From assembly GCA_046290465.1 (NCBI GenBank), contig JBKAGP010000001.1:608001-672000 (forward strand): 64,000 nucleotides of DNA. Reading direction: 5' to 3'. Below the pieces are notes generated by a model. The model ran no database searches and was not told the DNA's origin. It saw only the letters and a list, made by a program, of their open reading frames with translations. The DNA comes from Planctomycetota bacterium. Its GTDB lineage: Bacteria > Planctomycetota > UBA1135 > UBA2386. Positions 14,229 to 27,011 of this stretch are shown piece by piece; position 1 is the stretch's first letter; each line of letters opens with the position of its first letter. A program made the position numbers and the translations under genes.

Positions 14229-15479
14229 TCAGCGCTTGGTCGGCCGCGGGGGCAGCCACGGCAGCTTCGGGACCGCGGCGCGGTCGGGGTAGACCTCGGC
14301 GCGGAGCTGGCGGCCGACCAGGGCGTGGTCGCCGCGCAGCGCCTGGAACGAGAAGTGCACGTGGCCGGGCATGACCGCGTCGGCGCGGCGCGTCAGCAGG
14401 ATCTCGTCGCGCAGTTCGGTGGCGCGGATGCGGCCGCCGCCGTCGCGGATCTTGCTGGTGTAGAGGCCGGGCCAGATCGCGCGGCCCTTGCGGTTCTGCG
14501 CGTGCCAGTAGTCCAGCAGCACCGCGAACGCCTGCGGCTTCTGGTCGATCGGCCAGTACAGCTGCGGCGTCAGGTAGTCGCACCAGCCGTTGCGCAGCCA
14601 CTTCGGCACGTCGGCGTAGATGTCGCTGTACTGGTCGAGTCCGGCCTGGATGCCCTTCGGCACGCCCGGCCGCGCGATCCCGAACGGGCTGATGCCGACC
14701 ATCAGCCACGGCTTCTCGTCGTGCACCAGCTGGTAGAGCCGTTCGACGAACGTGTCGATGTTCTGCCGACGCCAGTCGCCGCGCGACAGCTTGCCGCCCT
14801 GCTTGCGATAGGTCTGCCAGCTCGCGTCGTCGGGGAACGGCCGCTTGTTTTCCGGGTACGGATAGAAGTAGTCGTCGATGTGCACGCCGTCGACGTCGTA
14901 GCGGCGCACGACGTCCTGGATCACCGCCAGCGTCCACTTGCGCGCGGTCGGGTGGCCCGGGTCCATCCACGTCCAGCGACCGTACTTCCACGTCAGGTGC
15001 GGCGCGCGTCGGGTGACGTGGGTCTCGTGCGGCGGCGACTTGCTGGCCTTGTGCACGCAGCGGAACGGGTTGAACCAGGCGTGCAGCTGCAAGCCGTTGC
15101 GGTGGCAGCGGTCGACCAGGTAGGCGAGCGGGTCGAAGCCGTCGGCCGGCGCCTTGCCCTGCACGCCGGTCAGCCACTCCGACCACGGCTCCAGCGGCGA
15201 GTCGTAGAACGCGTCGCCGGCCGCGCGCACCTGGAAGATCAGCGCGTTGAGCCGCAGCTCGACGGCACGGTGCACGATCGCGTCGAGTTCGTCGCGCAGC
15301 TGGTCGACCGACAGTCCCTTGCGCGACGGCCAGTCGATGTTGTTGACGGTCGCGACCCACGCGGCGCGAAACTCGGCGGGCGTGCCGCCACGCGCACGGT
15401 CTTGTGCATCGACCGGCAGAGAACATGCGAGCGTCGCGAGCAGGCACGCGAACGGCAACCAGCGAAAGGCTTGGATCAT
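14229..15479 (-). CDS. GHL10-family glycoside hydrolase (YddW/DigH-like)
   Basis: EFRAAWVATVNNIDWPS, LHAWFNPFR, RYDVDGVHIDDYFYP and PQLYW motifs; signal peptide. Confidence 0.9.
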   Translation of the reverse strand: MIQAFRWLPFACLLATLACSLPVDAQDRARGGTPAEFRAAWVATVNNIDWPSRKGLSVDQLRDELDAIVHRAVELRLNALIFQVRAAGDAFYDSPLEPWSEWLTGVQGKAPADGFDPLAYLVDRCHRNGLQLHAWFNPFRCVHKASKSPPHETHVTRRAPHLTWKYGRWTWMDPGHPTARKWTLAVIQDVVRRYDVDGVHIDDYFYPYPENKRPFPDDASWQTYRKQGGKLSRGDWRRQNIDTFVERLYQLVHDEKPWLMVGISPFGIARPGVPKGIQAGLDQYSDIYADVPKWLRNGWCDYLTPQLYWPIDQKPQAFAVLLDYWHAQNRKGRAIWPGLYTSKIRDGGGRIRATELRDEILLTRRADAVMPGHVHFSFQALRGDHALVGRQLRAEVYPDRAAVPKLPWLPPRPTKR

Positions 15480-15702
15480 CGGCAAACAGCACCCCCGTAG
15501 CTCCCGTATCATGCCGGGTTCGACGCCGGTGTCCCACCTCGCTCTGCTCGAAGCGGCTGGCGGTGGGGTGTTGGCGGTTCGGGCCAACTTTCCTGCCGTC
15601 CTCGGCGACCTCGCAGACGGGATGCAGCGACGTCGCGTGCGAGCTACGTTGCATCCTTCCCGGCCGCGAATCTTCTCGGCCCGGACCGATACCCACGCCC
15701 AC

Positions 15703-18700
15703 ATGTCCGCCCCTCGCTCCCTGTTGTTCGTCGCGCTCGGCGCGTCGCTCGCCGTCGCCCAGAACGGCCGTCGCCCCGAGGACTTCCAGATCGCGATCGG
15801 CATGCAGAACCGCGGCCTGCACGAGGAGGCGGTGCGCTACCTGAGCAAGTTCGTGCGCGAGAACGGCCAGCACCAGCTCGTGCCCGAGGCCTACTACCGG
15901 CTGGCGCAGTCGCAGATCGAGCGCAAGCAGACCGACGCCGCCATCGACGCGCTGAAGAAGGCGCTGCAGCGCGGTGGCGCCAGGTTCGAGCTGCTGCCGG
16001 AGGCGCGCTACCGACTCGGCGGCCTGCTGCAGGAGAAGGGCGACCAGCAGGGGGCGCAGCAGCAGTTCGCGGCGCTGGCGGGCGGCGTCGCCGACGACCA
16101 CTACCTCGCAGCGGCGGCGAGCTACGCGCTCGGCGAGACGTTGCGCGACCTCGACCGCGACGCGCCGGCGGCCGAGGCGTTCGGCAAGGCGGCCGCGCTG
16201 GCCGACGGTGAGCAGCGCGGCTTCCGATTTCCGTCGCTGTACCAGCAAGGCTTCGCCTACCTGCGCCTCAACCAGTTCGATCCGGCCGCCAAGGCGTTCG
16301 CCCGGGCGTGCGACGTCGCGCCGGACCAGGCGGCCAAGGGCGAGTGCAGCTACCTGGTCGGCGACGCGCGGCTGCGGCTCGAGCAGTACGTACCCGCGCG
16401 ACAGGCGTTCGAGGCGGCGCGCAAGGTCGGCGGCGAGTTCGCCGACGACGCGCAGTTCGGCCTCGGCTGGGTCGCGCTCGGCAGCGACGATCGCGACGGC
16501 GCGCTGCGCGCGTTCGGGCGGCTGATCGAGCGCCACCCGGATTCTCCGTTCGTCGCCAATGCACGGCTCGAACGGGCGCGCTGCTACTACCAGGCGCAGC
16601 AGTTCGACCGGGCCGGCAACGAACTGCGGCCGCTGCTGGCCGAGGCCGGTCCGCTGCAGCAGGAGGCGCGCGAACTCGAAGGCCTGTGTGCGCTGGCCAG
16701 CGGCAAGGGCCAGGCGGCGGTGCAGACGCTGGAGCAAGCGCTCGCCGCGGCTAGCGACGAGGACAAGCCGCGGCTGTCGTTCGCGCTCGGTGAGGCGTTG
16801 TCCAACCTCGAGCAATGGGGCGATGCGCTGCGGGCCTACCGCGCGGTGCCGGCGTCGGTCGGCGCAGACCTCTACGGCGACGCGCTCTACGGCGCCTGCC
16901 ACGCGCTGCACGAACTCGGTCGCAACCAGGAGTCGATCCAGTGCGCCGACGCGGTCCTGCAGCTCGAGCCGGCGCACCGTTCGCGGGTGCTGGCGCAGCT
17001 GGCGATCGCCGAGAACCGCTTCGCGCTGCGCGAGTTCGCCGCCGCCGAGCAGGTCTACCAGCAGCTGGAGAAGGTCGACGCGCACCGCCGCACGGCGCGC
17101 TGGAAGCTGTCGTGGTGCCGCTACCTGCAGGGGGACAAGCAGGGCGCGGCCGAGCGCTTCGGTGCGGTCGCCAAGGACCGTGAGGACGGCAACGCCGAGG
17201 AGGCGATGGCGATGCAGGCGCTGGCGCTCTACGAGAGCGGCGCCCAGGACCCGGCGCTGCAGGTCGCCGACCGCTACCGCGCGCGCTACCAGCAGGGCCG
17301 CTTCCTGGCGCGCACCGAGCGGATCGCGGCGCGCGTGCTGCGCCAGCGCGGCGACCTCGGCGCGGCCCAGCGCCGGCTCGAGCGCGCCGCCGCGATCGCG
17401 CGGCAGCAGGGCGGTGACGAGGCCGGCAGCGCCGACGTCGCCGAGCAGGCCGACCTCGCCTACCAGCAGGGCGACTACGAGGCCGCCGACCAGCTGTTCG
17501 CGCAGCTGACGTCGCGCGACGACGCGACCGGCGCGCGCGCGCTGGCGGGGCGCGCGTGGTGTGCGTTCGAGCTGGGCAACGACGCGCCGTGCCTGCAGGC
17601 GCTGCAGGCAGCCCGGCAACACCCGGCGGCCAAGGACGAGCTGGCCGGGTTGCTCGAGCTGGAGTCGGCGGTGCGCCACCGGCGGCAGGAGTGGCCAGAG
17701 GCGATCCAGGCGGCGCGCACGTTCTTGCAGAACCACGGCAAGCACCCGAAGGCGCCGATGCTGCGCTATGCGCTCGGCGTCGCGCTGGCGCGCAACGGCG
17801 ACCAGAAGGGCGCGCAGCAGGTGCTCGCCGCGCTGGCCGCCGACGGCGGCTACAACGAGCCCGATCGCGTCGTCTACGAACTCGCGTGGGCGCTGCGGCG
17901 CGGCGGCGACGAACGCGCGGCGCTGCAGCAGTTCGGCAAGGTCACGGCGATGACCGAGGACGTCGAGCTGGCCGGCGAGTCGCGGCTGTTCGTCGGCACC
18001 GACCTGCTGGCGCAACAGCCACCGAAGCTCGCAGCCGCGCGCAAGGTGCTCGAGCAGGTGCAGGGCAGCCACCGCAAGCAGGCGCTCTACCGGCTCGGCT
18101 TCGCCGAGTTCGAGGCCGCGACCGCTGAGGCCGCGATCGCTGAGGATGGCGCGCCGGTCGATCGCAAGCTGCTCGGTGCAGCGCGCGACCACTTCACCGA
18201 GATCGTCGGCATCGAGGGCGAGGAGCTGCGCCACGAAGCGCTCTACCTCGGCGCCGAGTCGTGCCGACGGCTCGGCGATGCCGAGGGCGCGCTGCAGCGC
18301 GCGCAGCTGCTGCTGCGGGAGGCCAACCAGCACGCGCGCGCGCCGCGGGCGCGGTTGGTGGTCGGCGAGTGCGCCCTGCTTGCCGAACGGCCCGACGACG
18401 CGATCGCGCCGTTGGAGCGGTTCCTGCGCGAGCACGACGCCGCCGCGGACGAGGTCGCGCGCGCCGACGCGGCGCGCGCCAACCTGTGGCTCGGCAAGGC
18501 CCGGCTGCAGCGGCGCCAGCACGAGCAGGCCGAGCGCTGCTTCCAGCTGGTGACCGGCCTCAGCGACGGCGCGCTCGCGGCCGAGGCGCAGTTCCGGCTC
18601 GGCGAGAGCCGCGCGCTGCGCAACGACCTCAACGGCGCGGCCGACGCGTTCGTCAAGATCCCGATCCTCTATGCCGACGCCGAGTGGGTGCGTAAGGGCC

Positions 18701-18825
18701 TGCTGCAGGCCGGCCTCACCTACAAGCGCATGAAGCAGCCGGCCAAGGCCACGCGGTTCTTCGACGAGCTGCTCGACAAGCACAAGGGCAGCGACGAAGC
18801 CAAGGTCGCGGCCGCGCAACGATAG
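15703..18825 (+). CDS. large exported tetratricopeptide-repeat protein (CpoB/BamD-like repeats)
   Basis: Signal peptide ending LAVA-Q; many repeats such as EAYYRLA, EARYRLG, DAQFGLGW, HPDSPFVANA, EAQFRLG. Confidence 0.88.
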   Translation: MSAPRSLLFVALGASLAVAQNGRRPEDFQIAIGMQNRGLHEEAVRYLSKFVRENGQHQLVPEAYYRLAQSQIERKQTDAAIDALKKALQRGGARFELLPEARYRLGGLLQEKGDQQGAQQQFAALAGGVADDHYLAAAASYALGETLRDLDRDAPAAEAFGKAAALADGEQRGFRFPSLYQQGFAYLRLNQFDPAAKAFARACDVAPDQAAKGECSYLVGDARLRLEQYVPARQAFEAARKVGGEFADDAQFGLGWVALGSDDRDGALRAFGRLIERHPDSPFVANARLERARCYYQAQQFDRAGNELRPLLAEAGPLQQEARELEGLCALASGKGQAAVQTLEQALAAASDEDKPRLSFALGEALSNLEQWGDALRAYRAVPASVGADLYGDALYGACHALHELGRNQESIQCADAVLQLEPAHRSRVLAQLAIAENRFALREFAAAEQVYQQLEKVDAHRRTARWKLSWCRYLQGDKQGAAERFGAVAKDREDGNAEEAMAMQALALYESGAQDPALQVADRYRARYQQGRFLARTERIAARVLRQRGDLGAAQRRLERAAAIARQQGGDEAGSADVAEQADLAYQQGDYEAADQLFAQLTSRDDATGARALAGRAWCAFELGNDAPCLQALQAARQHPAAKDELAGLLELESAVRHRRQEWPEAIQAARTFLQNHGKHPKAPMLRYALGVALARNGDQKGAQQVLAALAADGGYNEPDRVVYELAWALRRGGDERAALQQFGKVTAMTEDVELAGESRLFVGTDLLAQQPPKLAAARKVLEQVQGSHRKQALYRLGFAEFEAATAEAAIAEDGAPVDRKLLGAARDHFTEIVGIEGEELRHEALYLGAESCRRLGDAEGALQRAQLLLREANQHARAPRARLVVGECALLAERPDDAIAPLERFLREHDAAADEVARADAARANLWLGKARLQRRQHEQAERCFQLVTGLSDGALAAEAQFRLGESRALRNDLNGAADAFVKIPILYADAEWVRKGLLQAGLTYKRMKQPAKATRFFDELLDKHKGSDEAKVAAAQR

Positions 18826-18838
18826 ACAGGACTCCGCC

Positions 18839-19573
18839 ATGCTCTCGCTGATGCCCCAGTCGCCGAACGTCGTGCAGACGATCGGCGAGTTCTTCACCGC
18901 CGGCGGCCTGTTGATGTGGCCGATCCTGATCTGCTCGATCGTGTTGGTCGGCCTTGCGCTCGAACGGTACCTGAGCCTGCGTCGCGGTCGCGTGCTGCCG
19001 CAGGTCGTCGTCGACGCGGCGCACCAGTGCACCGAGGGCCGCGCCGACGTGATCGCCGCCGGGATCCTCGAGGCCAGGGCGCCGGGCGCGCGCGTGCTGG
19101 CGGCCGGGCTGCGGCGCCGCGGCTGCCTGCTCGCCGACGTCGAGAAGGCGATGGAGGACCGCCTGCACGAGGAGGGCGCCAAGCTGAAGGGCAACGTCGC
19201 CGGCATCCTGGTGGTCGCCGCGGTCGCGCCGCTGCTCGGCCTGCTCGGCACCGTGCTCGGCATTGCCGACGCGTTCGCGGCGGTCGAACAGACCGGGCTC
19301 GGCAGCCAGGAGGGCAGCGAAGCGCTCGCCGCCGGCATCAAGGTCGCGCTCTACACGACGATCTTCGGCCTGTTCGTGGCGATCCCGGCGACGCTGCTCG
19401 CCGCGCACCTGAAGGCGCGCGCCCGGCGGCTGGTCGCGGCGATCGCCGACACCGTGACGCCGACCGTCGAGGCGCTGGCGTCGCTGCCGCCGACGGCGAA
19501 GACCCCGGACCCGGCCGCGGCCGAGCGGGACGCGGCGTCGAGCGACGAGCCGGAGGAGACCCATGCGGCTTGA
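18839..19573 (+). CDS. MotA/TolQ/ExbB proton channel protein
   Basis: GGLLMWPIL, APLLGLLGTVLG, LAAGIKVALYTTIFGLFVAIP. Confidence 0.95.
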   Translation: MLSLMPQSPNVVQTIGEFFTAGGLLMWPILICSIVLVGLALERYLSLRRGRVLPQVVVDAAHQCTEGRADVIAAGILEARAPGARVLAAGLRRRGCLLADVEKAMEDRLHEEGAKLKGNVAGILVVAAVAPLLGLLGTVLGIADAFAAVEQTGLGSQEGSEALAAGIKVALYTTIFGLFVAIPATLLAAHLKARARRLVAAIADTVTPTVEALASLPPTAKTPDPAAAERDAASSDEPEETHAA

Positions 19574-19976
19574 GTCCGACAGCGACGAAGAGCTCGGCAT
19601 CAACCTGATGCCGCTGGTCGACGTGGTGTTCCTGCTGCTGATCTTCTTTCTGGCGGCGACGACGTTCTCGCGCGACGAGGTCGAACTCGACCTGCGCCTG
19701 CCCGAGGCCAAGACCGGCGAGGCCGGCAAGTCCAACCGGCAGCTGATCATCAACGTGTCCTCGGACGGCTCGCTGACGATGGCGGGGCGCAACGTCACGT
19801 TCGAGGCGCTCAAGCAGAAGCTGGTCGCCGCCGTGTCGCGCAACAAGGACCAGGCGGTCTTGGTGCGCGGCGACAAGGCGGCGCAGTTCGGCATCGGCCT
19901 GCAGGTGCTCGACACCTGCCGGATGGCCAAGGTCAAGAAGGTCGACTTCGCGGCGCTGCCGTCGAAGAAGGGGTAG
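19563..19976 (+). CDS. ExbD/TolR family protein
   Basis: INLMPLVDVVFLLLIFF with the essential TM Asp; LRLP; VRGD. Confidence 0.95.
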   Translation: MRLESDSDEELGINLMPLVDVVFLLLIFFLAATTFSRDEVELDLRLPEAKTGEAGKSNRQLIINVSSDGSLTMAGRNVTFEALKQKLVAAVSRNKDQAVLVRGDKAAQFGIGLQVLDTCRMAKVKKVDFAALPSKKG

Positions 19977-19980
19977 GCAC

Positions 19981-22900
19981 ATGGCGATCGGGGCGCGCAC
20001 CAGGCGGTGGTTGATGTGGGCGGCGTGGACCGTCCTGTGCCTGGCGTCCGCGATGTACGTCGGCCTCGTCGTCGGTCGGCCGCTCTACTACAGCGACGGC
20101 GGCCAGCAGGTCGCCGGTGCCGACATGGCCGGCGCCGGCATGCTGCGCTGGACCACGCCCGCGGCCGAACGCGAACTGCCGGTCGATCCGATCGGGCGGG
20201 TGGCGCAGCTGCCGGACGGGGCGCTGCTGTTCGGCATGGCCACGGAAGCGGGCACCAGCGACCTGTTCACCTGGCACCCGGATCGCCCCGACGTGCCGCC
20301 CGAGCCCGCCTACGGTCTCAACACCGAGCACAACGAACTGGCGCCGGCGGTCGGTCCCGACCAGCGCGTCTACTTCACGTCGGACCGGCCGGACGCGATC
20401 GGCGGCTACGACCTGTTCGCGACCACCTGGACGCCGCGCGGCTTCGGCCGGGTGACGCCGATGGCGGCCTGCAACACGGCGTTCGACGAGACCGATCCGG
20501 CTCCCGATCCGACCGGCACGTCGCTGGTGTTCGTGCGCATCGACCGCGCCATCGACGACGGCAACGACGGCGTGCTCTACCGCTGGCTGCTCGGCGATCC
20601 GCTCGATCCGTCGCTGGTGTTCCCCGACCAGGCGCGCCGCCGCGAACGGGTGGTCGATCGCGATCCGGCGTTCGCGCCCAACGGTGCGTCGCTGTGGTTC
20701 GTGCGCAAGTTGCGCGGCCGGCCGCTGCTGGTGTGCCGCACCAGCCGGCTCGGCGACGCGTTCGACCGCCCGGTCGAACTGTCGCTCGCATGGGGCACGC
20801 GGTCGCTGCGCAGCCCGCTGCCGCTGCCGGACGGGCAGTCGGTCGCGTTCGTGCAGCCGGCGGCCGGCGAGGACCCGGCGCTGTGGTTCGTCAGCCGTGC
20901 CGAGGAGTTGGTGCCGTGGTGGCCCGGCCAGCAGTGGCTCGAATGGCTGTGCCTGTCGCTGATCGCGTGCGCGGCGCTGCTGCTGCTGCTGCTCTACTTC
21001 GGCCAGCGCTGGAGCGCGCTCGACCTGGTCGCGCAGTGCCTGCTGCTGTCGCTGCTGCTGCACGTGCTGCTGTTCCTGTGGCTGATGGGCGTCGAGATCG
21101 CCGGCTCGCTGCTGCCCGGCAGCGACGACGACGACAGCGGCATGCAGGTCAGCATCGTCGCCTCCGCGGGCGTGGCCAGCGCGAGCCCTTCGGGCGGTGC
21201 GGGCGACGTCGCCGCCAAGGTGCAGCGCACGGTGCGCGAACGTTCGTTCGAGGTGGCCCAGCCGGGCACGGCGACGCAGCGGCCGCAGCCCGACGCGAGC
21301 AACAGCCTCGCGGTCGAGAGCGGCGCCTACCAGGCCGAGCCGACCGCCGAGGCCGAGGCCGAGCCGGCGCAGCTCGACGACGCCGCGGCCGAACTGCAGA
21401 AGCGCGACGGCAGCGATGCGGCGGCCGAACTGCAGCAGGCTGCGATCGGCGCCGTCCAACAGGTGCAGCAGCGAGCCGATCGGGCAGCTGCGCGTTCGGC
21501 AGCGGCCGATCCGAACGCCGAGGCCCGGGTCGTTAGGGTCGAGACGCCCGGCAGCGGCGTGGCGCGCGCGGCGGCGCGCGCGGTCGAGATCGCTGAGGGC
21601 GACGCCAACGCGGCGATCCCGATGCGATCGAGCCCGTCCAACAGCAGCTCGCCCGATGCGCCGGCGATGCAGGACGCCGCCTCGGCGGCGTCGCTGGCCG
21701 CGGCCGAAACGCGCGCGGACGCGGCGCCCGCACCGGTCGGCATGACCACCGAGGCGTCGCTGTCGGCGGCGCCGGCGAGCGCGTCGGTCGCGGCTCCAGA
21801 GCGCGGCGCCAGCAAGACCAGCGACGACGCGGTCACGGTCGCGATGCCCGGCAGCACCGTCGGTCGTTCGGCCAGCCGTCGCATCGACGCCCAGCCGGCG
21901 GCGCGCGAGGTCGCGGTCGCCGGGCCGCGCAGCCTGCCGCGACCCAGCATGCAGCTGCGCGGCGATCGCCCGGCCGGCGGCGCGCTGCCGGCGCGCAGCG
22001 AGGCCGCCGGCCCCGCACCGACTGCTGCGGTCGCCGCCGTCGAGGTGACGGCACCGGCCACACCCGACACGTCGACGGTCCGGGCGGCCCGCACCGCGCG
22101 GGCCGGCGAGCGGCCGTCGCCGCGCGAATCGCTGGCGACGCCGGGCTCGGCGCTGCGCCGTTCGCGACCGGTGGTGGCGATGCGCGGGCCGAGCGTGCGC
22201 ACGGCGCCGAAGGCCAGCCTGCGCGGTGGTGCGCCGATCGCGCTGAAGGATGGCGGCGGCCGACGCCCCGGCGGCGACGCGCCCAGCCGCGAGCCGCGAG
22301 CAGCGGCGGCCAGTGCGCCGGTCGCCGCCGCCGCGCAGCCGCTGCCGGACCAGCCGACCGGCAACCCGTCGTTCGCGCCGCGGCGCGCGCGCCCGGCGCG
22401 CAGCAGCACCGCCGGGGCGTTCGCCGCGCGGTTCCCGGTGACGCCGCCCGGCACCGAGGTCGCGCGCGCCGCGCCGCGGCCGTCGTCGCTGCCGCAGCCG
22501 AGCCAGCCGGTGGTCCAGAAGAACGCCTACAGCAACCGCTTCGGCCCGGCCAAGGCGCAGGCGCTGGAGCGCTTCGGCGGCACCGAGGAGACCGAGCGCG
22601 CGGTGCGCGACGGGCTGGCCTACCTGGCCAGCATCCAGAACCGCGACGGCTCGTGGGGCAACCGCCGCGACTACGACGGCAAGTACGGCTTCGTCTACGT
22701 CGGCAAGACCGCGCTGTGCATGCTGGCGTTCCTGGGCGCGGGCCACACGCCGTCGTCGAACAGCGAGCACTCGGTGGTGGTCACCCGCGCGCTCGAGCAT
22801 CTGCTGGCGCTGCAGGACGAGGACACCGGCGCGTTCGGCCGCAGCTCGTGCTACGGCCACGGCATCGCGACCTATGCGCTGGCCGAGTGCTACGGCCTGA

Positions 22901-23631
22901 CCAAGAACGACGACCTGCTGCGCCCGCTCGAGGACGCGCTGACCTGGATCCTGGCCAACCAGGGCCCGCGCAGCGACCAGCGCAACCGCGGCGGCTGGGG
23001 CTACTTCTCGCCCGGTCTGCGGGCCGAGGACAGCTACGCGCGCGTGTCGGTGTCGTCGTGGATGATCATGGCGCTCGAGTCGGCGCGTCTGTCGGGCATC
23101 GAACTGCCCGAGGACGTGCTGCCGGCGGCGCGCCAGTACCTCGAGCTGTCGTTCGACCGCCCGAACGGCTGGTTCCGCTACAACCACAAGCCGTCGCGGC
23201 TGCGCTCTGGCTGGCCGACGCTGCCCGCCAGCACGCCGGCGGCGGCGTTCTGCCTGATGCTGATGGGCGTCGAGAAGGACGACCGCATGGTCGAGGTCGC
23301 CAGCGACTACACGGTCGAGCGCCGGCCGCGCAGCTACCGGCGCTACCGCGACGACGACTTCGTGCTGCGCGGCCAGGGCAACGTCTACTTCTGGTACTAC
23401 GGCTCGCTGTGCTGCTTCCTGAAGGGCGGCCAGCAGTGGCAGCGGTGGAACGAACGGCTCAGCACGGTACTGCCGCAGGCGCAGAACGAGGACGGCTCGT
23501 GGACGCCGATCGACGTCTACGCCGAGGAGGCCGGCGACAACCGGCGTGACCGCAGCTACACGACGGCGATGTGCGTGCTGAGCCTGGAGGTCTACTACCG
23601 ATACTTCACGCCGCTGCTGTTGGGTCGGTAG
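19981..23631 (+). CDS. multidomain membrane protein: PD40/TolB-like propeller, TM helices (SxxxH), Ala/Pro-rich linker, prenyltransferase/squalene-cyclase-like barrel
   Basis: LNTEHNELAPAV..D.RVYFTSDR..GGYDLF (PD40); SLLLH; QW motifs QNRDGSW, QDEDTGAF, QNEDGSW. Confidence 0.85.
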   Translation: MAIGARTRRWLMWAAWTVLCLASAMYVGLVVGRPLYYSDGGQQVAGADMAGAGMLRWTTPAAERELPVDPIGRVAQLPDGALLFGMATEAGTSDLFTWHPDRPDVPPEPAYGLNTEHNELAPAVGPDQRVYFTSDRPDAIGGYDLFATTWTPRGFGRVTPMAACNTAFDETDPAPDPTGTSLVFVRIDRAIDDGNDGVLYRWLLGDPLDPSLVFPDQARRRERVVDRDPAFAPNGASLWFVRKLRGRPLLVCRTSRLGDAFDRPVELSLAWGTRSLRSPLPLPDGQSVAFVQPAAGEDPALWFVSRAEELVPWWPGQQWLEWLCLSLIACAALLLLLLYFGQRWSALDLVAQCLLLSLLLHVLLFLWLMGVEIAGSLLPGSDDDDSGMQVSIVASAGVASASPSGGAGDVAAKVQRTVRERSFEVAQPGTATQRPQPDASNSLAVESGAYQAEPTAEAEAEPAQLDDAAAELQKRDGSDAAAELQQAAIGAVQQVQQRADRAAARSAAADPNAEARVVRVETPGSGVARAAARAVEIAEGDANAAIPMRSSPSNSSSPDAPAMQDAASAASLAAAETRADAAPAPVGMTTEASLSAAPASASVAAPERGASKTSDDAVTVAMPGSTVGRSASRRIDAQPAAREVAVAGPRSLPRPSMQLRGDRPAGGALPARSEAAGPAPTAAVAAVEVTAPATPDTSTVRAARTARAGERPSPRESLATPGSALRRSRPVVAMRGPSVRTAPKASLRGGAPIALKDGGGRRPGGDAPSREPRAAAASAPVAAAAQPLPDQPTGNPSFAPRRARPARSSTAGAFAARFPVTPPGTEVARAAPRPSSLPQPSQPVVQKNAYSNRFGPAKAQALERFGGTEETERAVRDGLAYLASIQNRDGSWGNRRDYDGKYGFVYVGKTALCMLAFLGAGHTPSSNSEHSVVVTRALEHLLALQDEDTGAFGRSSCYGHGIATYALAECYGLTKNDDLLRPLEDALTWILANQGPRSDQRNRGGWGYFSPGLRAEDSYARVSVSSWMIMALESARLSGIELPEDVLPAARQYLELSFDRPNGWFRYNHKPSRLRSGWPTLPASTPAAAFCLMLMGVEKDDRMVEVASDYTVERRPRSYRRYRDDDFVLRGQGNVYFWYYGSLCCFLKGGQQWQRWNERLSTVLPQAQNEDGSWTPIDVYAEEAGDNRRDRSYTTAMCVLSLEVYYRYFTPLLLGR

Positions 23632-23659
23632 GCCCGGCGGGCTACTGTGCCGGCCCCAG

Positions 23660-24232
23660 ATGTCCAACACCAAGTTCGTGCTCCGCACGGTCGTGCTCGC
23701 GCTCGCGGGCAGCGTGCTCGTCTTCCTCGGCGTCGGCCTGATCCTGGCCGACGAATGGACGGTCACGACCACGCGCACGATGGCGCTGCCGCCGGCGCAG
23801 GTCGCCGGGGCCGTGCGCGACCTCGACGCGTGGTCGAAGTGGTCGTCGATCGACTTCCAGCTCGGCAACCCGACCAACCGCAGCTTCCGCGGCGAGGCCG
23901 GCAAGCCGGGGCAGGAGGCGATGTGGAGCGGCCCGCTCGGCCAGGCGGTGGTGACGCTCGACGCGGTGACCGAGACCGGCGTCGACTACCGCATCGGCTT
24001 CGTCTACCGCCAGGGCAACACCGGCGGCAAGTTCGCCGGCAGCATCAGCTGGAAGGCGAACGGCGGCTCCACCGAGGTGACCTGGACCGAGCACGGCAAG
24101 CTCAACTCGCTGATCGAGCGCTGGACCAACTGGTTCGGGGCGCTGCAGGACAAGGTGCAGCAGATCCAGCGCGCCAGCCTCGCCGGCCTCGAGGAGCACG
24201 TGCTCGAGCAGCAGCCGGACGGCAACAAGTAG
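23660..24232 (+). CDS. SRPBCC/START-like (polyketide cyclase) family protein with N-terminal TM
   Basis: W.VTTTRTM.LPP..V...V.DL.AW.KWS; GSTEVTW; ASLAGL terminal helix. Confidence 0.8.
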   Translation: MSNTKFVLRTVVLALAGSVLVFLGVGLILADEWTVTTTRTMALPPAQVAGAVRDLDAWSKWSSIDFQLGNPTNRSFRGEAGKPGQEAMWSGPLGQAVVTLDAVTETGVDYRIGFVYRQGNTGGKFAGSISWKANGGSTEVTWTEHGKLNSLIERWTNWFGALQDKVQQIQRASLAGLEEHVLEQQPDGNK

Positions 24233-24869: not shown

Positions 24870-27011
24870 ATGAACAAGCCGTGGGGCGTGGTGTTGGGGC
24901 TGCTGTCGATGGCCGCCCTGCCGGGGCAGGAGCACGGCGGTGGGCAGGCCGGGCAAGGCGACCGGCAGGAGCCGCGCCCGGCCAACCGCCTCGACAAGGA
25001 GTCGTCGCCGTACCTGCGCCAGCACCGGCACAACCCGGTCGACTGGCACCCGTGGGGCGACGAAGCGCTCGCGCTGGCCAAGAAGCTCGACAAGCCGATC
25101 TTCCTGAGCATCGGCTATTCGGCGTGCCACTGGTGCCACGTGATGGCGGCCGAGAGCTTCTCGGACCCCGAGGTCGCCAAGCTGATGAACGAGAAGTTCG
25201 TCTGCATCAAGGTCGACCGCGAGGAGCGGCCCGACATCGACCAGATCTACATGGGCGCGCTGCACGCAATGGGCAAGCAGGGCGGCTGGCCGCTGTCGGC
25301 GTGGCTGACGCCGGACGGCAAGCCGTTCTTCGGCGGCACCTACTTCCCGCCGACGGCGAGCCGCGGCCTGCCGTCGTTCCGCCTGGTCTGCGAGTCGCTC
25401 GCCAACGCCTGGGCGGACGAGCGCGACAAGGTGCTGCAGGGTGCGGGCGAGCTGAGCGAGCACCTCGAGCAGGCGCTGGCGCCGTCGCTGCCGGCGGGCG
25501 AGCCGACGCCGGCGCTGTTCGGCAAGGTGCTGGCGGAGGCCCGGGACTGGTACGACGCCGAGCATCCGGGCTTCGCCGCACCGCCGCGGTTCGCGCCGAA
25601 GTTCCCGCAGGCCTCGCAGCTGCAGATGCTGCTGCGGAACGACGACCAGCAGGGCCGCGCGATGGCGCTGGCGGCGCTGCGCGCGATGGCGCGCGGCGGC
25701 ATCCACGACCAGCTCGGTGGTGGCTTCCATCGCTACAGCACCGACCGCCGCTGGCTGGTGCCGCACTTCGAGAAGATGCTCTACGACAACGCGCTGTTGG
25801 CGTCGGCATACCTCGAGGCGAGCCAGGTGGAGAAGGACGGACCGTTCGCGAGCGTCGCGCGCAGCACGCTCGACTACCTGCTGCGCGAGATGCAGGCGCC
25901 CGACGGTGGCTTCTGGTCGAGCCAGGACGCGCAGTCCGAAGCCGTCGAGGGCAAGTTCTTCGTCTGGAGCCGTGACGAGATCGAGCAGCTGCTCGGCGAC
26001 GACGCCGAGCTCGTCTGCGACGTGTTCGGGGTGACGGCGGCCGGCAACTGGGACGGCACCAACGTGCTGTGGCAGGCGCAGGACGTGCCCGCGACCGAGG
26101 CGTTCGCCGCGGCGCGTGCCAGACTGTTCGCAGCGCGCGCCGAGCGGGTGCGGCCCGGCACCGACGACAAGGTGCTGGTGGCGTGGAACGGCATGGCGAT
26201 CGAAGCGCTGTGCGACGGCTACCGCGTGCTCGGCGACCGTCGCTACCTCGAGGCCGCGCAACGCGCCGGTGCGTTCCTGCTCGAACGGTGCGTGGTCGAC
26301 GGTCGGGTCCGCCGCAGCTGGCAGGGTGGCAGCGCGCCGTTCGCCGGCTACCTCGAGGACCATGCCTCGCTGGCCAACGCGCTGCTGGCGCTGTTCGAGA
26401 GCGACTTCGAGGGGCGCTGGCTGCGCGCCGCGAAGCAGGTGCTGCAGACCACCAGGGACCACTTCCGGGCCGAGGACGGTTCGTTCTACTTCACCGCCGA
26501 CGACCACGAGCAGCTGCTGGCGCGCACCAAAAGCGCCAGCGAGGGCGCGACGCCGTCCGGCATCGCGATGGCGGCGCGGGCGTTCTTGCGGGCGGGGCTG
26601 CTGCTCGGCGACGACGCCGTCTACCAGCTGGGGGCCGGCGCGCTGCGCGCCAACCACGCGCTGCTCGCCCACAGCCCGGCGTCGGCGCCGGCGCTGATGC
26701 GCGCGGTGCAGCTGCACCTCGGCGCGCCCAAGGAGATCGTGATCGCCGGCCGACCCGACGACGCGCGCACCCAGGCGCTGCTGCGCGCGGCGTGGCGGCG
26801 GTTCCCGCAGCCCGGCGTGGTCGCGTGCGTGCACGACGGCAACCGCGAGGCGCTGGTGGCGATCAGCAAGGTCTTCGATGGCAAGCTGCCGAGGGACGGC
26901 GCGCCGTGCGCCTACGTCTGCGAACGGGGCGTCTGCCAGGCGCCGGTCACGACGGTCGACGCGCTGCGGCAGGCGTGGGGGGCGGCGAAGCCCGCGGAGG
27001 GCGGCAGGTGA
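24870..27011 (+). CDS. thioredoxin-domain protein, YyaL/DUF255 family
   Basis: [52 protein letters not shown]. Confidence 0.93.

Follow-up and report, generated by a model that had tools for sequence, protein, structure and literature searches.

A putative force transducer with a TolB-like propeller and a toroid head, encoded behind ExbB and ExbD genes in Planctomycetota

What could be the work of a protein that joins, in a single chain, a TolB-like propeller, a helix of the TonB/TolA type and a toroid? The question is raised by a gene, called X here, at positions 19981 to 23631 of a 64,000-nucleotide stretch of Planctomycetota bacterium DNA (assembly GCA_046290465.1, contig JBKAGP010000001.1, positions 608,001 to 672,000 of the forward strand). 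This whole stretch, referred to below as the window, has a GC content of 71% and comes from a genome of 94% completeness represented by a single 6.59-Mb contig. The (alpha/alpha)6 toroid is otherwise familiar from terpene cyclases and glycosidases. We consider it probable that X transmits force as the third part of a dedicated motor of the ExbB-ExbD type, and is thus an analogue of TonB and TolA in which a toroid takes the place of the TonB_C domain.

The position of the gene is central to this reading. X is the last gene of an operon on one strand, in which it follows the genes for a secreted tetratricopeptide repeat (TPR) protein, ExbB and ExbD:

15703..18825, + strand, TPR-repeat protein, first gene of the operon (Pfam TPR_16 and other TPR families)
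18839..19573, + strand, ExbB/TolQ-type proton-channel subunit of 244 aa (PF01618 MotA_ExbB, E 1.2e-25)
19563..19976, + strand, ExbD/TolR-type subunit of 137 aa (PF02472 ExbD, E 1.4e-29)
19981..23631, stop codon included, + strand, X, putative force transducer of 1216 aa (open frame, GC content of third codon positions, homologues)

The ExbB and ExbD genes overlap by 11 nt, and 4 nt separate the ExbD stop from X. An earlier note on this DNA, made by a model from the sequence, had likened the protein to a fused TolB-TolA with a replaced C-terminal domain, and did not cite the ExbB-ExbD context; this context, with both genes immediately upstream, gives strong support to the TolA/TonB-like part of that structural reading and raises it to a specific mechanism.

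The same linkage was found in other genomes. The order TPR-ExbB-ExbD-X is kept in three close relatives, and a comparison of residues 1-410 of X with 401 sampled Planctomycetota genomes gave a match in 66 of them (49 of the 243 high-quality genomes). At the 29 best loci of this search, ExbB and ExbD were found directly upstream and on the same strand in 28. Twelve distant loci were taken with wider flanks and eleven of these were scanned, L064 being left out; a TPR gene encoding 888-1237 aa stands ahead of ExbB-ExbD-X in all eleven, and the genes downstream of X vary.

The motor encoded at the X locus appears to be functional, since the transmembrane aspartate D20 of ExbD is invariant in 29 syntenic copies and T138, T173, T174 and P183 of ExbB are conserved. 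Among the syntenic ExbB copies, P131, T138, T173 and T174 are present in 29 of 29, and S33 (in the first transmembrane helix) and P183 in 28 of 29. Elsewhere the source genome encodes a classical operon for a TonB-dependent transporter (TBDT), ExbB, ExbD, TonB and a TPR protein, together with an orphan TonB gene and additional genes for ExbD, and therefore the X locus seems to represent an additional, dedicated motor. The window ExbB shares 35-39% identity with the syntenic ExbBs of distant genomes, compared with 31% for the ExbB of its own Ton operon; for ExbB and ExbD together the corresponding values are 35-42% and 30-31%.

X itself recurs in many Planctomycetota. A word-indexed search with the whole protein gave 244 matches, and the 120 homologues listed, which together with the query are the basis of the motif counts below, come nearly all from Planctomycetota metagenome bins, have 747-1563 aa and mostly combine PD40 with SQHop_cyclase_C; their source names are those of hypothetical, PD40 or prenyltransferase-repeat proteins only. 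An exhaustive HMMER search with the N-terminal module (N-module) gave 364 representative clusters at E<=1e-10. The recurrence of the architecture in the listed homologues, and of the N-module by itself in these clusters, goes beyond chance. The presence of one and the same architecture in many independent assemblies shows that the gene is no chimera, in agreement with the single polypeptide of the earlier note.

The gene was read as one frame, coding throughout, because the GC content of third codon positions (GC3) remains high, at 0.84-1.00, in all 50-codon windows, those of the very GC-rich linker (79-83% GC) included. An antisense open reading frame (ORF) of 1323 aa opposite X was rejected as a gene; its translation is Arg/Ala-rich nonsense. 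As a check of the assembly, contigs from four other runs were aligned to 18839-23900. Two of them span ExbB to the early linker (X2, 18839-21794; X3, 18839-21925) and two the toroid (X3, 22345-23900; X2, 22540-23900), and the GC-rich linker is tiled by short pieces and bridged by no single contig of the four runs. These contigs decide the continuity of X neither way, and we take it from the single-contig genome of the window, the GC3 profile and the full-length homologues. The sole indel in the four runs is an in-frame insertion of 6 nt behind position 21345 (GCCGAG in three runs, GCCGCG in the fourth), and such a frame-keeping length polymorphism fits a tolerant spacer. In some other assemblies X is split into two overlapping frames within the linker (L004:6001-9598, with a frame change; L067:8626-12325; and the proteins P0087 and P0126, partners of each other, of which P0087 has a tail that looks out of frame). 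The simplest explanation for these split genes is local pseudogenisation, or erroneous indels, in a stretch that is repetitive and rich in GC; where X is split, gene callers report a separate 'terpene cyclase/mutase' protein.

Along the chain of X the following features can be distinguished:

19993..20073, + strand, first transmembrane helix (TM1), residues 5-31, predicted to follow a basic cytoplasmic tail (model helix, charge of the N-terminal tail)
20086..20913, + strand, PD40 beta-propeller, residues 36-311, predicted to be periplasmic (Pfam PD40; model confidence, pLDDT, about 90-96)
20920..21000, + strand, TM2, residues 314-340, predicted to return to the cytoplasm (hydrophobicity, model, alignment)
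21013..21087, + strand, TM3, residues 345-369, TonB/TolA-type anchor helix (motif conservation, comparison with the SHLS motif)
21088..22536, + strand, Ala/Pro/Ser/Arg-rich linker ('domain II'), conserved neither in sequence nor in length (composition, homologue comparison)
21142..21159, + strand, candidate 'motor box', a short strand with alternating hydrophobic residues (MQVSIV), some 20 residues past TM3 (alignment pattern)
22537..23607, + strand, head at the C-terminus, an (alpha/alpha)6 toroid that contains QW-like motifs (model, Foldseek, VIA)
23593..23628, + strand, strongly conserved C-terminal tail ...EVYYRYFTPLLLGR (invariant residues in the alignment)

The N-terminal transmembrane segment, the PD40 repeats, the hairpin with S-L-L-L-H, the linker and the QW motifs, all recorded in the earlier note, lie where it had placed them, as judged from Pfam, the models and the motif positions. 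Pfam recognises PD40 at residues 113-146 (E 5.4e-8) and SQHop_cyclase_C (PF13243) at residues 927-1036, the latter scoring 26.0 bits where 26.1 are required; NCBIfam matches to cyclase, PorE and TolB families are all far below threshold. Hydrophobic segments cover residues 11-32, 318-343 and 344-380. Both domain models were built with AlphaFold2 on alignments of 46 sequences, and the model of the N-terminal 410 residues (pLDDT 86.6) contains helices at 5-31, 314-340 and 345-369, with disorder past residue 372. The propeller between the first two helices is six-bladed, and its top matches among Protein Data Bank (PDB) structures in Foldseek are TolB chains (E 4.8e-12 to 1e-9; 15-16% identity), the lowest E being that of 2w8b over about 255 aligned columns.

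The third helix is the element that connects X to the known transducers. It carries the motif C353-x3-S357-x3-H361-x6-L368-x3-E372, the S-L-L-L-H of residues 357-361 being encoded at nt 21049-21063. According to a 2026 review (PMC12905483), the SHLS motif of such transducers reads Ser-3X-His-6X-Leu-3X-Ser, and its Ser and His touch TM1 of ExbB or TolQ in structures solved by cryo-electron microscopy; X matches three of the four positions (S357, H361 and L368) and has Glu372 at the last. Over the 46 aligned sequences H361 never changes, and S357, C353, R343 and W344 are each kept in at least 90%. A C-x3-[S/A]-x3-H helix is present in 120 of the 121 sequences (query and listed homologues), with Ser in 112, Ala in 8 and the His in all 120; the sole exception is an N-truncated fragment. 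The SxxxH pair singled out in the earlier note is, by these counts, conserved. Past TM3, the sequences MQVSIV, LEVTVL, FKVKLA and FRVRLA occur at one position of the 46-sequence alignment as a candidate motor box, the name given by Williams-Jones et al. 2025 (PMC12204202) to the strand that follows the transmembrane helix in TolA and TonB; the isolated model of X is unstructured there (pLDDT below 50).

The orientation of X was predicted from charges by the positive-inside rule. Averaged over 118 sequences, the N-terminal tail has 3.0 K+R against 0.47 D+E, the nine-residue loop between TM2 and TM3 has 1.98 against 0.11, and the 20 residues past TM3 have 1.44 against 3.81. On account of this distribution, the N-terminus and the TM2-TM3 loop are predicted to face the cytoplasm, with propeller, linker and toroid on the periplasmic side, which agrees, at the level of a prediction, with the periplasmic placement of propeller and barrel that had been suggested before.

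The linker (residues 373-845, about 480 aa) consists of 25% Ala, 11% Pro, 11% Ser and 10% Arg. In 100 homologues it has 295-773 aa, with a median of 486, and cannot be aligned, while its composition is similar (Ala 26%, Pro 12%).

What sits at the end of this linker was modelled from the C-terminal 383 residues as an all-helical toroid with a pLDDT of 90 and a predicted TM-score (pTM) of 0.90. It carries the QW-like motifs QNRDGSW (22636-22656), QDEDTGAF (22813-22836) and QNEDGSW (23482-23502). The best Foldseek match is MstE (6sbe, E 6.9e-8, TMq 0.60), a single-domain class II terpene cyclase, followed by squalene-hopene cyclase (SHC) and then by GH76, epimerases and, as weaker matches only, chains with macroglobulin thioester (TED) domains. 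These results and those for the propeller support, domain by domain, the assignment proposed in the earlier note. In an exhaustive search with VIA, SHC 1gsz (Z 26.6, root-mean-square deviation 3.0, 290 residues aligned) and 8paj (Z 26.3, 297 aligned) came first, with glycosidases and epimerases close behind at Z 23-24.5; identity to solved enzymes is 8-19%. Among (alpha/alpha)6 toroids the modelled head comes closest to the cyclase branch, and its function is not fixed by the fold, because glycosidases and epimerases score nearly as high. Its score for PF00432 (Prenyltrans) is 16.9 bits against a cut-off of 26.5, those for TIGR01787 and TIGR01507 are 29.9 against 322.7 and 24.0 against 431.1, and a search of the toroid against the sequences in the PDB returned only marginal QW-motif matches of about 25 residues (E 0.007-0.015). 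In the ESM Atlas the toroid matched only unnamed or SQHop_cyclase_C clusters of Planctomycetota and Verrucomicrobiota, with no lead to function.

A motif scan of residues 834-1216 found no D-x-D-[DE] in the toroid, in accordance with the observation in the earlier note that DxDDTA is not visible; D.DD occurs once in X, within an acidic stretch, DDDD, at residue 382. The thioester motif C-[GL]-E-Q of alpha-2-macroglobulin and complement TED domains is found nowhere in X. TonB_C (PF03544), detected twice elsewhere in the genome, has no match in X at E<=1, and neither a TolA nor a vWA domain was matched in X by Pfam. Within the family the toroid is the better conserved part, at 51-91% identity against 23-92% for the N-module in the 46-sequence alignments. 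In its C-terminal tail L367, L369, E370, Y372, Y373, R374, Y375 and P378 (fragment numbering) are invariant, and of four toroid paralogues in the source genome three have a Y-Y-R-[YF] tail and the fourth N-Y-R-Y. The missing DxDD motif and the scores below threshold fit the earlier suggestion that the barrel is a binding module and no cyclase, and we infer that the toroid is probably a non-catalytic binding module.

The N-module can also carry other heads. Among 68 new N-module representatives of at least 850 aa the TM3 motif is present in 66, and 46 of those end in a YYRY toroid tail. By inspection, the other 20 comprise eleven with a DDFEFVN-type tail (CarboxypepD_reg being found in three of the four of these that were scanned), four with a second PD40 propeller (including P0398, P0408 and P0428), one with a toroid and a PDZ domain (P0449), one with a toroid of variant tail, and three that are seemingly truncated or frameshifted. 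A different family of the phylum is represented by two small complete genomes with X homologues of 927 aa (L070:8001-10784:+ and L071:5317-8100:-). These homologues have retained the TPR-ExbB-ExbD operon, propeller and C-x3-S-x3-H helix and lack the toroid. A CarboxypepD_reg domain and a beta-rich domain ending in ...DDFEFVN... replace the toroid there and also in P0403, P0431 and P0442. Heads that are exchanged on one constant, putatively motor-binding module would be expected of a force transducer and not of an enzyme.

The toroid, for its part, occurs on other anchors. It has nine more matches in the source genome, and two of these, paralogues of 540 and 551 aa (G000:C1:2835296-2836918(+) and 2839162-2840817(+), equal to L023:6296-7918:+ and L023:10162-11817:+), begin with a TonB-type anchor (RLRQxPW..SxxxH), from which a Pro-rich linker leads to the toroid; motor genes are absent beside them. 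They belong to a short TonB-anchor-toroid family with 2280 matches among 8000 candidates scored. The 120 members listed have 456-594 aa, most of them about 505-510, and SxxxH lies within the first 160 residues in 119; they are annotated as terpene cyclase/mutase or prenyltransferase-repeat proteins. The anchor motif of X opens this short family as well as one canonical TonB of the source genome. Another protein with a toroid, of 747 aa (G000:C1:6567496-6569739(-), L021:6496-8739:-), combines it with an ExbD-like periplasmic domain and adjoins a gene for type II secretion pseudopilin G. It was considered as an ExbD-type 'transpore helix' transducer and dropped, as its ExbD match covers only positions 25-114 of the profile and its N-terminus is signal-peptide-like.

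Compared with known systems, X shares with TonB and TolA the location of its gene after ExbB/TolQ and ExbD/TolR, an anchor helix with the N-terminus inside (an orientation that in X is deduced from charge bias), the Ser-3X-His-6X-Leu spacing, a long proline-containing linker, a C-terminal globular head and possibly the strand-like motif past the helix, which in X is a candidate seen with low confidence in the isolated model. It differs from them in its three transmembrane helices, the propeller before the anchor, the Ala-rich linker and the toroid of about 360 aa. TonB_C and TolA domain III have a fold that binds its partner by strand addition and X has an all-helical toroid instead, so that it does not belong to that Pfam family. 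As a further parallel, Williams-Jones et al. 2025 (PMC12204202) proposed for PVC bacteria a 'new class' of transducers in which an SHLS helix is combined with a motor box, a linker and a head of the vWA type, and which are encoded downstream of TPR-tolQ-tolR-tolR. Like X, these have an SHLS helix, a disordered linker with a motor box (in X a candidate one), a head not of the TonB kind, and TPR and tolQ/tolR genes upstream; unlike them, X has a toroid head, one ExbD gene in place of a heterologous pair, and TM1, propeller and TM2 in front. The words PD40, prenyl, squalene, terpene and toroid appear neither in the text of that paper nor in one supplementary file. An ExbBD partner with a toroid head or with PD40 is not described in the full-text literature that was searched, and most subscription journals lie outside it, so that one has possibly been published.

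With TolB itself, X shares only the six-bladed PD40 propeller, which in X is placed between two transmembrane helices and is not soluble. No TolB_N domain was found in X or in the source genome, and no Pal-like gene in the conserved module at the distant loci scanned; two ORFs with OmpA domains are located elsewhere in the genome. The supplement of PMC12204202 gives no pal as known in Planctomycetes. In the comparison with a fused TolB and TolA, the likeness to TolB extends to the propeller fold only; with the propeller tethered by transmembrane helices, no TolB_N and Pal reported missing, we regard the analogy as architectural, and it does not establish membership in a Tol-Pal system. Class II terpene cyclases (squalene-hopene cyclase, MstE and 8paj, a small myxobacterial 'SHC') have in common with X the toroid fold and QW-like motifs, and differ from it in that X has no DxDD, reaches scores at or below the cut-offs, is predicted to be periplasmic and is tethered to a motor anchor.

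Taken as a force transducer, X could work as follows. Proton flow would be converted into movement by an ExbB pentamer and an ExbD dimer, and TM3 of X would dock on the outside of ExbB by its Ser/His/Leu face, with the short strand past TM3 contacting ExbD in its periplasmic portion. The periplasm would be spanned by the long Ala/Pro-rich linker, at whose end the toroid head, at a distance from the inner membrane, would grip a target on which the motor could pull, perhaps a protein, the wall or a lipid. The insertion of TM1, propeller and TM2 would keep a second periplasmic domain at the surface of the inner membrane near the motor, and the secreted TPR protein may be a conserved fourth partner.

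Several observations weigh against this. The Ser of the anchor motif is replaced by Ala in 8 of 120 sequences, Glu372 stands at the fourth position in place of Ser, and distant members have Phe where the motif has Leu. X has three transmembrane helices, with the motif in the third, where TonB and TolA have one. One of the 29 loci (L052) has no ExbB or ExbD match in its flank, no candidate outer-membrane partner is conserved downstream of X at the eleven distant loci scanned, and the nearest structural relatives of the toroid are enzymes. The three transmembrane helices and the motif left incomplete by its Glu could mean that X is uncoupled from the motor, SxxxH being a packing helix of a three-helix protein and the gene order a matter of co-regulation. 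This we think hardly likely, given synteny in 28 of 29 loci with motor genes down to about 35% identity, the His in all 120 sequences that cover the region, and an anchor motif shared with the short toroid family and canonical TonB of the same genome. The enzymatic relatives suggest another explanation, in which X is a membrane-anchored periplasmic enzyme. Its toroid would work as a terpene cyclase, a prenyltransferase or a carbohydrate-active enzyme with a lipid or glycan of the envelope as substrate, and ExbBD would be regulatory or incidental. This explanation would account for the best structural matches (MstE, SHC and drimenyl-PP synthase, all class II terpene cyclases, then GH76 and epimerases), for the names of relatives (terpene cyclase/mutase or prenyltransferase/squalene oxidase repeat proteins) and for a highly conserved toroid with many invariant aromatic and polar residues. 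It seems to us quite improbable, since the toroid has no D-x-D-[DE], scores for PF13243, PF00432 and TIGR01787 below the cut-offs, has no more than the above low identity to any solved enzyme, is predicted to lie in a periplasm with no obvious supply of isoprenoid diphosphates, and is replaced on the N-module by non-enzyme-like domains in other lineages.

The remaining alternatives concern what a motor-driven X would do. It might be a planctomycetal stand-in for Tol-Pal, stabilising or tethering the outer membrane or else coordinating constriction or budding of the envelope, with TolA-like and TolB-like parts joined in X and the TPR protein acting like CpoB; this is a specific version of the transducer reading. 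TolB is the best PDB match of the propeller, the order of TPR, TolQ/R-like genes and SHLS anchor recalls tol-pal plus cpoB, TolB_N was not found in the source genome, and no pal is known from the phylum. With both its ends fixed in the inner membrane, the propeller, unlike TolB, is unable to move across to the outer membrane; X is also without the TolB N-domain and TolA domain III, the module has no Pal-like gene, and matches in 66 of 401 sampled genomes are few for a core envelope function. We rate this version as unlikely. Energised import, in which the toroid would open an outer-membrane channel or surface structure for the uptake of large substrates as TonB does with TBDTs, must be judged doubtful as well. 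The logic of motor, anchor and linker is that of TonB, the many short TonB-anchor-toroid paralogues with no motor genes of their own are usual for extra TonB copies, and heads that vary between lineages would be expected of adaptors to different targets; on the other side, no transporter gene is conserved beside the module, a classical TBDT-ExbB-ExbD-TonB-TPR operon is encoded separately in the genome, and toroid domains have no known partner resembling a TonB box. On balance, the reading of X as a force transducer of its own ExbB-ExbD motor is the one that we prefer.

Some further observations concern the surroundings of the module and the other motor genes. The ORF of the TPR gene opens at 15247, but the ATG at 15703 is the more probable start and gives the signal peptide MSAPRSLLFVALGASLAVA with Q as the next residue; we chose this start because GC3 reaches 0.97 only from about 15700 and the N-terminus there is signal-peptide-like. 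As mechanical ORFs, the TPR frame (15247-18825, +) and a GHL10 glycosyl-hydrolase-like gene (14229-15803, -) overlap by about 550 nt. Downstream of X, a SRPBCC/Polyketide_cyc2 protein (23660-24232, 190 aa) and a DUF255 thioredoxin-domain protein (24870-27011, 713 aa) were not counted as part of the module, as they are syntenic in close relatives only. The ExbB of the Ton operon (G000:C1:5633835-5635649; L027:3835-5649:+) has 604 aa, of which MotA_ExbB covers only 464-580, with a long N-terminal extension. A second cluster led by a TPR gene (G000:C1:1696103-1705420, L028) encodes a TPR protein of 960 aa, a protein of 372 aa without Pfam match, two ExbD paralogues of 180 and 182 aa side by side, and a secretin of 889 aa; it resembles the TPR-tolQ-tolR-tolR layout of the vWA transducers, but a secretin comes next.

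To our knowledge, few kinds of transducer are known for 5:2 motors of the ExbBD/TolQR type, namely TonB, TolA and the recently proposed vWA-headed proteins. The X locus would add a further and well-conserved type, with a TolB-like propeller before the anchor and an (alpha/alpha)6 toroid as distal head. More tentatively, and as a possibility that we would not call probable, Planctomycetota, in which Pal and a classical Tol-Pal system are reported to be missing, may have an undescribed family of proton-driven trans-envelope machines, with a core of four genes, swappable heads that are toroids in most lineages, and short TonB-anchor-toroid proteins sharing the motors, which would carry out tethering, remodelling or uptake of the Tol-Pal or Ton type; the toroid would then be a new force-bearing grip. 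If X is a transducer of this kind, hundreds of Planctomycetota proteins named 'terpene cyclase/mutase' or 'PD40 domain-containing' would move from lipid metabolism to envelope mechanics, and the module would be a candidate for the coupling of inner-membrane energy to the outer envelope in a phylum without Pal.

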